Program-made: the position numbers and the translations under genes
Shown here: positions 21,855-29,304 of the stretch, piece after piece
How positions within the stretch are numbered: the stretch's first letter is position 1
Layout: every line of letters begins with the position of its first letter
NCBI GenBank assembly: GCA_010093605.1
Contig: MU004200.1
Coordinates: forward strand, 62,001-126,000
Direction of reading: 5' to 3'
Length of the DNA stretch: 64,000 nt
DNA from: Lophium mytilinum
Taxonomy: Eukaryota
The notes under the pieces: model-generated
What the model saw: only the letters and a program-made list of their open reading frames with translations
The model's database searches: none
Told to the model about the DNA's origin: nothing

Positions 21855-21958
21855 TTTTGTTAGTCCAACGCCTATCACTTCAACCAGTTGACCGTTAAAC
21901 CCGTGGGGCTGGGATCAACGGTCAACTGGTTGAAGTGATAGGCATTGGACTGATAAAA
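21855..21958. repeat. Near-perfect 42-bp inverted repeat with a 20-nt spacer
   Basis: Arms 21855-21896 and 21917-21958 are reverse complements at 39 of 42 positions. Confidence 0.95.
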
Positions 21959-26125: not shown

Positions 26126-26906
26126 GGTCGACATAGGTCTAGTTCATAGGGCGGTGTTCATAGGGTAGCTTATGGGAGTTCATATTGGGACGAGGGAGCT
26201 ACGGTGATGAATTTCGGGGGTATATCCCGGGGGTGCTTCAACCCAGCGGCCAAGGGCCCAAAGAAGCAAAAAAGCGTATATAATTAATGATTAATGGAAA
26301 TGACATCTCCTTCTTCCGAATTCCCATCATGTCAGGGTTGCTTCAAGGTATTTTCAAAATGCCCCACCTATCCAGTAAGAAGTGTCTGAATCATGATGGT
26401 CTAACAACATCCGCGATCCAGACATCGCATTCTGGCTAGCTCTGATATGATACAACTGAGATCACTGCCAGAGCGCATGTCTATGCATTCTCGTTTGCCG
26501 CTGTTTGGGGTGCCCCCACGAGAATTACAAACGTGGGCGCGATGTCACGTTTCATGCGGTGAGAATTGGGCTACCTCTTAGCCGGACGACCTCCTAGATA
26601 TGGGGGCACTCCTAACAGTGGTGTTCAGCCTCCAAAGTGGTAGTCAATATAGGAAAATATAAAGGATTGAATTGTAGAGTTCGAATTTGGTGAAACTTTT
26701 GGCGGTTTTTGGAACCTGGCTCGCGGGAAAGCTTAGACCGAGCTATGACTAAATGTTTGCAAGCGTGGGGACTGAAAAGCAAAATCATCGCGCATGAACT
26801 ACATAATGTGGCCCACCCCCCTCACCTGTTCCAGGTGCTATCAACTCGGCAAACGTGACAATACAGGACCCTTTCCTGTCCTAATATTCACCCATAAGCT
26901 CACGCA

Positions 26907-29304
26907 ATGGGTGTCCCATCGACACAGGCGTCGAACGCTATCATCTACCTGACTTACGGCGCATTCTTGTTCGTATCCTATTCTACAGACACTGCACCAC
27001 TTGTAGGGCTATCTAACGGGCCCAATTGTAGGGTTACGGGTGTCTACATCGCATTCAGGCTCCGCCATCAGTCGAAAGGCGAATACTTGTCCAGCAATGG
27101 CACGCAGAAGGGTCAGGCGCATTTGCAGGCTTCTAGTCAGGAGAGCGACATCCCCAGCCGCTTCTCTTGCGAGCCTGGATAATCTATCCCCACCCAAAGA
27201 ATACCTGCTGACAGGCTTCAGGCATCCCGCTTGCTCTGAACTTTATCGCATCGGGTGAGTGCATGGGTATAACATCCTGAGCACTGGAAAGGAGCAGCGG
27301 CAGCATCGGTACATTACACGACGCACGACACGCACAATCACATCAGCAAGTACACTATGGGTGTAGACTAGATTGGGAGACTGGGAGATGTGATACCAGG
27401 TTCGTATTTGAGATCTCTCGCGGACACCTGCTCTGCAGAGAGCATCTGCGACCTCGTCCTCGGCTTCGTGCTGAGGGTGGGGTGACGTGAACTACCTGCA
27501 GAGCAGATCTGCGCGGCTACACTGCGGGCGCGGACTCAAAGCATAACCCGGATGTTTTCTCTCTTGCATTAGAGGGAGCACATCCAGTCTTGCTAAGATG
27601 AAGCTGAGAAGTACCGTAAGAACTCGATCAAGATAATACTTGCGTGAGGAACGTGCTGCCGCTCTTTTCCATACTCATTAACCCCATTCCCCTAATTTTA
27701 TTGTGGAAGCTGACCTAGGAATTTTGTTATCACAGCTCTCGGTTCTGGTATTCTCTTCTCCTACCCCGAGATCGCGACTATTTGCGGAGTACAAGGCTTG
27801 GTAGTATATGCCCTTTCGTCCTCACTTCCGCTTTTGGTCTTTGGTTGGTTGGGTCCCATTCTCCGACGGAAATGCCCCGAAGGCTTTGTGCTCACGGAGT
27901 GGACGAGGCAACGATACGGGGCGGTGACAGCCTTGTTTCTCAGTCTTTGCACGTAAGTGGCAGAGCTTGAACGCAAGAATGACGAAAACTCATTGTTGAA
28001 TCTAGTCTCATTACCCTGTTCCTCTACATGGTGGCCGAACTCTCTGCTATGCAGCAAATCGTCAATGTCTTGACTGGATTGGACGGACTGCCTGCAATCA
28101 TCGTTGAAGCCGTGGTTACAACCATCTACACCTGTACGAAAACGTACACCCCCTTCCTCTATGTTTACTAATATTCTCAGCCATTGGCGGCTTCCGTGTC
28201 TCCTTCATAACCGACAACATCCAAGGCGCCATGGTTGTGGGTCTCATCATTTTAGGCGTCATATCAGTCGGTGCTACTACCCATATCGACCGCAGTCTGA
28301 TCGCAGAATCTGGTTTCTTGAACTCCAGCCTCTTGGGCTGGCAGCTCGTCTACATTCTACCAGTTGCTGTTCTCACGAACGACTTTTTCATATCTGTGGG
28401 TCTTTCCTCTGCCCCTAAACCATTCCTGTCTTCTCTTCTAAGTTTCAAACAGGGCTTCTGGCTACGAACCTTTGCTTCCCGCACCGACAAGGATCTCTGG
28501 ATTGGCGTTATCATAGCTACGGTAGCTGTGACCATCATCCTTACTTTCGTTGGTAGTGCCGGCCTCCTCGCCGCCTGGTCTGGTGCCTGGCCCCTCGGCT
28601 CTTCAGACTCTGGATACCTGTCGCTCTTCCTCCTCCTCGGCCAGCTCCCGGCCTGGGTCGTAGGCGTAGTCCTCGTCATGGTCGTCTCCCTCTCTACCGC
28701 CGCCTTCGACTCCTTCCAGAGCGCCATGGTGAGCACAGGCTCCAACGACATTTTCCGCAATCGCCTCAACCTGTGGTTCATTCGTGGCTGTGTCGTAGTG
28801 ATCATCGTTCCAGTCGTCGTAGTCGCTTTAAAGAGCCCAGACATCCTCCAGATTTATCTGATCAGCGACCTCGTCAGCGCCGCGCTCGTTCCCGTCCTCA
28901 TTCTCGGACTCTCCGACTGGTTCTACTGGTGGCGCGGCTTTGAAGTCGTCGTCGGCGGTCTCGGCGGCATCCTCACCGTGTTCTTCTTCGGCCTAGTCTT
29001 CTACAAGGGCGATTCTCAATTGGCTGGGAATCTGCTCCTCCTCGAAGGTGGACTCTACGGCAATGACTGGAGTGCGTTTGGTGCCTTCATGGCTGCTCCC
29101 ATTGGTGGTCTCCTCTGGGGCTTCGGCGCTTGCGGACTTCGTCTCTTGACGCTGTTTGTCCTGGCTAAGGTTAAGGGACACAGGTTCGATGCTTTGGATC
29201 GGCCGGCGCCGCAGTTTCATCCTACTGATGCTGCGGCAGAGAGCGAGCAGGAGGCCGTGACTGAGCATCGGGCGGATACGAAGACGGATGGGAAGTTCTT
29301 CTAG
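26907..29304 (+). CDS. DUR31: Sodium:solute symporter of the DUR31/NCU01977 type; probable thiamine or thiamine-precursor transporter
   Basis: Spliced exons give IPLALNFIAS, LGSGILFSYPEIATI, CPEGFVLTEW..QRYG, GGFRVSFITDNIQG and FWLRTFASRTDKDLW. Intron 3 contains a TPP aptamer. Confidence 0.85.
27296..27663 (+). ncRNA. TPP riboswitch aptamer in intron 27255-27735, with a very long P3 insertion
   Basis: P1: AGCGGCAGCAT (27296-27306) pairs with GTGCTGCCGCT (27653-27663). P2: CGGTAC (27307-27312) pairs with GTACCG (27611-27616). J3/2 CTGAGA at 27604-27609. P4/P5: AACTCGATCAAGATAATACTTGCGTGAGGA. Confidence 0.92.

Follow-up and report, generated by a model that had tools for sequence, protein, structure and literature searches.

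Splicing of certain fungal transporter genes is controlled by intronic thiamine pyrophosphate (TPP) riboswitches. Two of these genes, NCU01977 of Neurospora crassa and DUR31 of Candida, are the closest described counterparts of the element analyzed here, an intron on the plus strand of a 64,000-nucleotide (nt) stretch of Lophium mytilinum DNA (contig MU004200.1, positions 62,001 to 126,000), which we call the window. As described in the parts of the N. crassa report drawn on here (Li & Breaker 2013, PMC3597705), an element called alpha (consensus RGCGGYRRY) forms at least 11 base pairs (bp) with alpha', the 3' shoulder of aptamer stem P1. Without TPP, the alpha-alpha' helix forms, the 5' splice site S1 is used, and the reading frame stays intact. 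With TPP, the local P1 forms and donors S2 to S4 are used, giving mRNAs with stop codons. In-line probing showed that the aptamer RNAs bind TPP, and alpha mutants supported the competitor role of alpha. Deleting the unpaired G in the aptamer abolished the thiamine response, and mutating S3 alone left regulation unaffected or had little effect. The mechanism has been classed as Type II, and fungal P3 stems are described as varying in length, in the portion of Mukherjee et al. (2018, PMC5882874) used here. The excerpted text of Donovan et al. (2018, PMC5997356) reports that Candida Dur31 transports thiamine and that DUR31 splicing is thiamine dependent.

The window intron is very probably the orthologue of the NCU01977 (Candida DUR31) thiamine-transporter riboswitch, working as described by Li & Breaker. 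Judged against the same parts of the N. crassa report, the two systems share an orthologous SSF gene, the codon position of the intron, a compact aptamer lying close to the 3' splice site, a GC-rich alpha of the form RGCGGYRRY that starts less than 60 nt after S1 and makes at least 11 bp with the P1 3' strand, a downstream GTTCGT donor (S3 in N. crassa), and stop codons in the alternative products. The window intron is shorter (481 nt), its alpha lies 346 nt from alpha' rather than ~530 nt, and one alternative donor is seen where N. crassa has three. Immediately after its alpha, moreover, come 6 nt that are perfectly complementary to the P2 3' strand and that the N. crassa sequence, by eye, does not have; the window is known from sequence and contigs. 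In Candida parapsilosis and C. albicans, DUR31 is likewise an orthologous gene (Dur31 clade V) with a riboswitch in a coding-sequence intron. The authors judged N. crassa-type long-range pairing unlikely in that 351-bp intron (PMC5997356), whereas the window clearly has an alpha-alpha' pairing. The riboswitches of fungal NMT1 and THI4 and of plant THIC belong to the same aptamer class and govern alternative 5' splice site choice. There, as far as the sources used here describe them, P4/P5 nucleotides mask a proximal donor in untranslated regions, whereas the competitor in the window pairs with the P1 3' strand from ~350 nt away.

The host gene and its relatives

The window is eukaryotic, and a plus-strand gene model with seven exons gives a protein of 528 amino acids (aa). 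The features that define the gene and its third intron are as follows.

26907-26968, 27032-27111, 27222-27254, 27736-27952, 28006-28133, 28181-28395 and 28453-29304, plus strand: exons of the 528-aa gene (gene model)
27222-27254, plus strand: exon 3, coding for ..IPLALNFIAS (gene model; joints 27111/27222 and 27254/27736 in contigs)
27255-27260, plus strand: S1, the productive 5' splice site GTGAGT (joint 27254/27736 in sequencing run X4)
27710-27735, plus strand: likely branch site CTGAC (27710-27714, from the motif alone) and 3' splice site CAG (27733-27735, from contig joints)
27736-27952, plus strand: exon 4, beginning ALGSGILFSYPEIAT (gene model, identical protein, contig joints)

The exon-4 peptide matches, with 100% identity, a 528-aa Lophium mytilinum protein that carries PF00474 (SSF transporter) and the UniRef label 'urea transporter'. 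This precomputed PF00474 annotation is the source of our family assignment; a Pfam scan of two raw reading-frame pieces gave no match. Peptide comparison finds hundreds of relatives of the transporter in Pezizomycotina. Intron 3 runs from 27255 (GTGAGT) to 27735 (CAG), exactly the coordinates given in an earlier note that a model had made from the letters of this stretch. Its codon position agrees, by eye, with that of the intron in the N. crassa gene shown in the Li & Breaker supplement. By sequence comparison, we assign the transporter as the NCU01977/DUR31 orthologue, with a predicted riboswitch in a coding-sequence intron at a conserved position.

An Rfam scan at the gathering score gave no match in the window. 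In Rfam E-value mode, RF00059 (TPP) matched positions 27562-27667 with 44.6 bits (E 2.3e-7), and there was no second TPP match in the window. The RF00059 match, the exon-4 identity, and the intron position bear out the claim of the earlier note that an intronic TPP riboswitch lies in an NCU01977/DUR31-type transporter, and the scans bear out its warning that a default search may score the element only partially; at the default gathering score the element is missed.

We collected orthologous loci from metagenome contigs by exon-4 peptide alignment. Of 196 pattern matches, tblastn confirmed 149, and the analysis used the best 80. A TPP core lies ~125-140 nt upstream of exon 4 in 73 of these best 80 loci. 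All three landmarks were present in 57 loci and in the window, and these gave the 43 unique intron sequences on which the counts below are based. At E up to 0.1, 17 of the 21 distinct loci searched matched RF00059, scoring 31.2-53.0 bits. Default Rfam annotation misses this riboswitch class because the window and the 17 relatives all score below the gathering score of 54.3 bits. Four loci (L051, L054, L055, and L020) gave no TPP match at E up to 0.1 and may be transporter copies without a riboswitch. L051, L054, and L055 show ~81% exon identity, and three of the four matchless loci have 1.5 kb of upstream sequence.

A compact local aptamer

The RF00059 alignment places CUGAGA, the P2 3' strand, P4/P5, and GGA at high posterior probability. 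It puts the 5' half inside a hairpin, where most P1 and P2 pairs are mismatched. Infernal misplaces the 5' half in the window because P3 is long. We assign the aptamer and the hairpin before it as follows.

27428-27506, plus strand: long hairpin closed by CUGCUCUGCAG / CUGCAGAGCAG, between the alternative donor S2 and the aptamer (minimum-energy fold)
27513-27531, plus strand: local aptamer 5' half GCGGCUACACUGCGGGCGC, with P1 5' (27513-27517, 27520-27522), P2 5' (27524-27527), unpaired G27528, C27529, and the P3 base G27530-C27531 (conservation in introns)
27530-27604, plus strand: P3, ~74 nt, with an inner hairpin GGAUGU ... ACAUCC at 27550-27585 (fold and relatives)
27604-27652, plus strand: conserved 3' core, with CUGAGA (27604-27609), the P2 3' strand (27611-27617), and P4/P5 (27623-27648) (Rfam alignment and pair counts)

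The motif at 27513-27531 (GCGGCUACAC U GCGG G C GC) is, by eye, nearly unchanged from the start of the N. crassa aptamer. P1 consists of two segments on either side of a 2x2 internal loop: G27513-C27517 with G27658-C27662, and C27520-C27522 with G27653-G27655. In P2, G27524-G27527 pair with C27614-U27617 and C27529 with G27611, leaving G27528 unpaired. P3 is based on the pairs G27530 with C27604 and C27531 with G27603.

These assignments are strongly conserved. The local 5' strand is found in all 43 introns, and a stricter form of the motif in 42 (L024 has UAC for CAC). Of 983 cells for the 23 local pairs in a MAFFT alignment (A2), 99.0% keep the pair, compared with 19.9-46.3% after a shift of the 3' partners by 1-3 columns. 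Taken by stem, the figures are 96-100% of cells for P1, P2, and the P3 base and 99.7% for P4/P5. In a relative whose P3 is only ~33 nt long (L009), Infernal itself aligns the local motif as P1/P2/P3, at 53.0 bits. The support for the local pairs is conservation, not covariation. We conclude from these comparisons that the predicted sensor is a compact local aptamer at 27513-27662, not one split by a ~290-nt P3 insertion.

The earlier note had read the aptamer as split in this way. That claim is not supported: the aptamer brings a 5' strand of its own, nearby at 27513-27529, P3 is ~74 nt long, and this 5' strand recurs in all 43 introns and in N. crassa. The note was correct in locating CTGAGA at 27604-27609 and in giving the supposed insertion a stem of its own: CTGCTCTGCAG (27428-27438) pairs with CTGCAGAGCAG (27496-27506) in the minimum-energy fold. 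The interior of this long hairpin varies among relatives. A candidate P3 5' strand within it, GCUUCGU at 27462-27468, could pair with AUGAAGC before UGAGA; it was rejected, as its place is the apical loop of a 14-bp hairpin and P3 is accounted for by the local strand.

Just upstream of the TPP core, two relatives (L022 and L030) have two copies of GCGGGCGCGG, ~16 nt apart, which look like a short duplication of the P2/P3 5' strand of the aptamer; it is the second copy that Infernal aligned.

A distant alpha element, probable competitor for the P1 3' strand

The P1 3' strand has a second potential partner near the start of the intron.

27286-27306, plus strand: alpha element, with core AGCGGCAGCAU (27296-27306) and 5' extension GGAAAGGAG(C) (RGCGGYRRY fit, duplex energy, relatives)
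27653-27671, plus strand: alpha', which is the P1 3' strand GUGCUGCCGCU (27653-27663) plus the tail CUUUUCCA, with local P1 or alpha as partner (duplex energies, relatives)

The segment AGCGGCAGC (27296-27304) fits RGCGGYRRY at nine of nine positions and starts 41 nt after S1, within the 60 nt seen in N. crassa. The alpha core forms 11 pairs with the P1 3' strand, ten of them Watson-Crick and one G-U, and GGAAAGGAG (27286-27294) can pair with CUCUUUUCC (27662-27670), G-U pairs included. Of 2000 dinucleotide shuffles, 12 gave a Watson-Crick helix of 10 bp or longer joining the 349 nt before the core to the 23-nt P1-3' region. In a single sequence, the alpha helix is thus unusual against shuffles but not overwhelming. 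We take the pairing as real because it is kept in relatives: 39 of the 43 introns have at least 10 contiguous pairs (G-U allowed) between intron nt 10-130 and alpha'. The exceptions (L003, L009, L062, and L064) have 6-8 pairs. A control segment of equal length (nt 130-250) reaches 10 pairs in one of the 31 introns long enough to contain it. In L003, (CAG)n-like repeats (GAGCAGCAGCAGCAGCAG, L003:1011-1100) replace alpha, so that no more than 7 contiguous pairs with alpha' are left, although the rest of the intron is near-identical to L002.

Energy calculations favor the distant partner. The alpha:alpha' duplex of the window is worth -30.8 kcal/mol; that of alpha' with the local P1 5' strand is worth -14.1 to -15.2 kcal/mol. 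Over 42 introns, the medians are -23.7 and -14.05 kcal/mol, respectively. Folding the whole intron gave -172.5 kcal/mol without constraint, -171.9 with alpha-alpha' enforced, and -160.7 with the local aptamer enforced. The alpha-alpha' helix is already present in the unconstrained fold, and the local-aptamer fold is ~11-12 kcal/mol costlier.

The sequence features that the earlier note listed all lie where it placed them. The strand that it called P1 5' is the published alpha, because position, sequence, and partner agree. The complementarities of its distal P1/P2 5' strands (27296-27312) are real, and its P1 is indeed 11 bp long and extendable; the identity of that strand as aptamer P1 does not hold. 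Its proposal that long-range pairing acts on splice-site choice is supported. A different long-range pairing that it suggested, between 27273-27287 near S1 and 27584-27600, is not conserved: the window does somewhat better than shuffles (z score of -1.99), but the median over 42 introns is +0.2 and none of the 42 falls below -2 (L064 was dropped, its 5' segment being shorter than 12 nt).

Alternative donor use and spliced forms

Two further features lie in the 5' part of the intron.

27258-27285, plus strand: small hairpin AGUGC ... GCACU over S1 intron positions +4 to +8, containing TGA 27278-27280 (minimum-energy folds)
27400-27405, plus strand: S2, alternative 5' splice site CAG/GTTCGT, whose mRNA carries the TGA (joint 27399/27736 in runs X1 and X4)

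S1 reads GTGAGT in 37 of 43 introns, with G1, T2, and G5 invariant in alignment A2. In the gene model, the 528-aa frame is kept open only by the joint 27254/27736. Reading on into intron 3 meets an in-frame TGA at 27278-27280, as the earlier note had said. The alternative mRNA keeps 27255-27399 and with it this TGA. All 43 introns have an in-frame stop between S1 and the downstream GTNNGT donor or donors. AG/GTTCGT itself is found in 42 of the 43 (L076 has GTAAGT), 108-225 nt after S1, and S2 corresponds by sequence to N. crassa S3, as judged by eye.

We compared contigs from four of five matching public sequencing runs with positions 26700-28500. The runs are unlabelled as RNA, and complementary DNA (cDNA) origin was deduced from the joints. 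In the organism's own run, X1, four contigs are 99-100% like the window, and they are taken to be cDNA-derived because introns 1, 2, 4, 5, and 6 are skipped at GT..AG. One X1 contig joins exons 1, 2, and 3 and then continues through S1 to 27399. Another carries the joint 27399/27736, and one is unspliced over 27370-27762. Run X4, from a relative (24 contigs, mostly 90-99% alike), has both 27254/27736 and 27399/27736. These joints indicate that productive and alternative mRNAs both exist. The productive joint was not found in the X1 contigs, which is not evidence of absence, as rare variants drop out of contigs. Contig depth was 609 for the 27399/27736 joint and 275 for the unspliced contig, values that do not measure isoforms. 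Of the two alternative donors proposed in the earlier note, CAG/GTTCGT at 27400 is thus borne out by joints. The sequence GTAAGA at 27616 is present as described, and its use as a donor finds no support: no joint from it appears in the contigs of the compared runs, which can show presence and not absence.

Several observations concern the splice sites themselves. Although it looks like a weak donor, AG/GTTCGTA (27400-27408) is almost invariant in very diverse introns (for example L008, L023, and L077), and the introns of the group closest to the window also keep the GAGATCTCTC(A/G)C that comes next. When the segment from S1 to alpha is folded, some of positions +3 to +9 are paired in 40 of 42 introns; this count has no control and may be trivial. 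A pairing of GGUUCGUA with UAAGAACU, which would join S2 to J2-4/P4, was considered and rejected: by eye, the aptamer side varies among relatives and S2 does not. A literature search on the GTTCGT/GUUCGU donor and riboswitches returned no fungal TPP paper among the matches listed.

The proposed mechanism and points against it

We propose that alpha' (27653-27671) chooses between two partners: a weak, interrupted local P1 5' strand, or the stronger alpha, 30-41 nt after S1. Without TPP, alpha would pair with alpha', and in Lophium mytilinum the adjoining CGGUAC would also pair with the P2 3' strand. Approximately 300 nt, including the donor at 27400, would be looped out, bringing S1 near the 3' splice site. 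The whole of intron 3 would then be removed and the transporter made. With TPP, the local aptamer would fold and free alpha, and either the donor at 27400 would be used or splicing would fail, giving mRNA with the TGA at 27278. The elements, their conservation and energetics, both spliced forms, and the unspliced form come from the window, its relatives, and the contigs; the match of each state to the ligand would follow N. crassa.

Several points weigh against this proposal. The thiamine dependence and the direction of the switch would be carried over from experiments in N. crassa and Candida. The RF00059 score of 44.6 bits is below the gathering score of 54.3, a curated cut-off and not a structural feature. 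The local pairs are nearly invariant: one pair is changed on both sides, and shuffles equal the observed values in ~200 of 500 trials. Covariation tests are uninformative here because the pairs hardly vary. Alpha and alpha' also pair at 66-67% when slid by 3 columns in the MAFFT alignment, because the alpha element has a 3-nt periodicity. Alpha' ends 64-72 nt before the 3' splice site, the value varying with where that end is placed; this is slightly more than 'commonly under 60 nt', which the consulted text of PMC3597705 gives as a tendency rather than a limit. In the window, the alpha strand has a match to P2 as well, for which the published model has no need. Finally, X1 and X4 have no RNA label on record, so cDNA origin is only deduced, and the riboswitch joints have just 27-29 letters on their shorter side, as expected of short unitigs.

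An extension of alpha and alternative readings

The match to P2 deserves separate treatment.

27307-27312, plus strand: CGGUAC extension of alpha, found in few lineages (perfect complement of the P2 3' strand GUACCG, 27611-27616)

In our reading of the sequence, CGGUAC is the sole unusual feature of the window and the sole one that goes beyond the published model, and its role is putative. A complement of at least 6 bp to the P2 3' strand, no more than 3 nt from the end of alpha, occurs in four of the 43 introns (the window, L004, L002, and L076). Such complements were found at 1.55% of 6,996 control positions, so that ~0.7 introns would be expected. Twelve further introns have a shorter remnant after alpha (nine CGG, two ACG, and one GCGG), and the remaining introns have less. 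The duplex of CGGUAC with the P2 3' strand is worth -9.4 kcal/mol, compared with -7.0 for the local P2, and a distal P2 and P4/P5 form spontaneously once alpha-alpha' is enforced. By eye, the N. crassa sequence has no P2 complement after alpha.

These data allow an extension of the proposed mechanism in which alpha plus CGGUAC is a selected mimic of the whole aptamer 5' half that, without ligand, would capture the 3' strands of both P1 and P2 and so give a deeper off-state than alpha by itself. The excess of P2 complements over expectation, the presence of one in L076, which belongs to a separate sequence group, and the energetics of the distal P2 all point this way. Against it, the other three cases look related, leaving perhaps two independent events; the 12 introns with remnants keep short ones only; and N. 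crassa does without the feature, alpha being enough there (PMC3597705, in the parts cited above). We regard such selection as possible but rather unlikely. A bolder form, which we consider somewhat more doubtful still, holds that alpha has grown into a full 5'-half mimic (11-bp P1 plus 6-bp P2), that one 3' half toggles between two 5' halves ~210 nt apart, and that the distal assembly either dismantles the sensor more than in Neurospora or itself binds TPP. If the distal assembly did bind TPP, the logic of the switch would be changed.

A more radical alternative is that the ligand-binding aptamer consists of the distal strand (P1 27296-27306, P2 27307-27312) and the 3' core, with ~290 nt within P3 and no role for 27513-27531. 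The earlier note found what looked like a complete P1/P2 there because CGGUAC adjoins alpha. The distal strand does offer 11 plus 6 pairs without a break, in a register that suits a three-way junction, and the fold with alpha-alpha' enforced, in which the distal P2 and P4/P5 form by themselves, lies only 0.6 kcal/mol above the minimum. The local strand, however, is the one kept in every intron, and it agrees with the TPP consensus down to the unpaired G and the G-C at the base of P3 by CUGAGA. The distal strand is instead followed by AUUACA, without the unpaired G or the GC, and it is this G whose deletion kills the thiamine response in N. crassa (PMC3597705). The P2 complement after alpha is missing from 39 of 43 introns and, by eye, from N. 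crassa, where the aptamer RNAs bind TPP and the alpha mutants fit a competitor role, again according to the cited parts of that report. A split sensor is thus very improbable. Our modeling instead makes the 'split aptamer' a real predicted conformer, the ligand-free competitor state and not the sensor.

Least probable of all is a decayed or constitutive element that no longer senses TPP and uses two donors at fixed ratios: it could account for the RF00059 score below the gathering score and for the X1 contigs without the productive joint (not evidence of absence, as noted), but the consensus positions of the 3' core and local 5' strand are all intact and identical to those of many relatives, and the low score is a property of the class, because all 17 RF00059-matching relatives also fall below the gathering score.

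An inverted repeat elsewhere in the window

Apart from the riboswitch, the window contains a near-perfect inverted repeat at 21860-21955, with arms of ~37 bp (TTAGTCCAACGCC...GGCATTGGACTGA). It matches a microRNA precursor model on both strands with 46-50 bits, compared with a gathering score of 90. The repeat probably represents a palindrome or a small foldback element rather than a microRNA.

Implications for fungal DUR31/NCU01977 introns

On the reading that we prefer, with a compact local aptamer and a distant alpha competitor, any complement of P1 found at long range in a fungal DUR31/NCU01977 intron should be taken for the published alpha competitor and not for part of a split aptamer. 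The near-invariant AG/GUUCGU in 43 diverse introns is a good target for asking what a decoy site contributes. The P2-complementary extension of alpha, whose role is putative, bears on the question of what portion of the sensor has to be tied up when no ligand is present.

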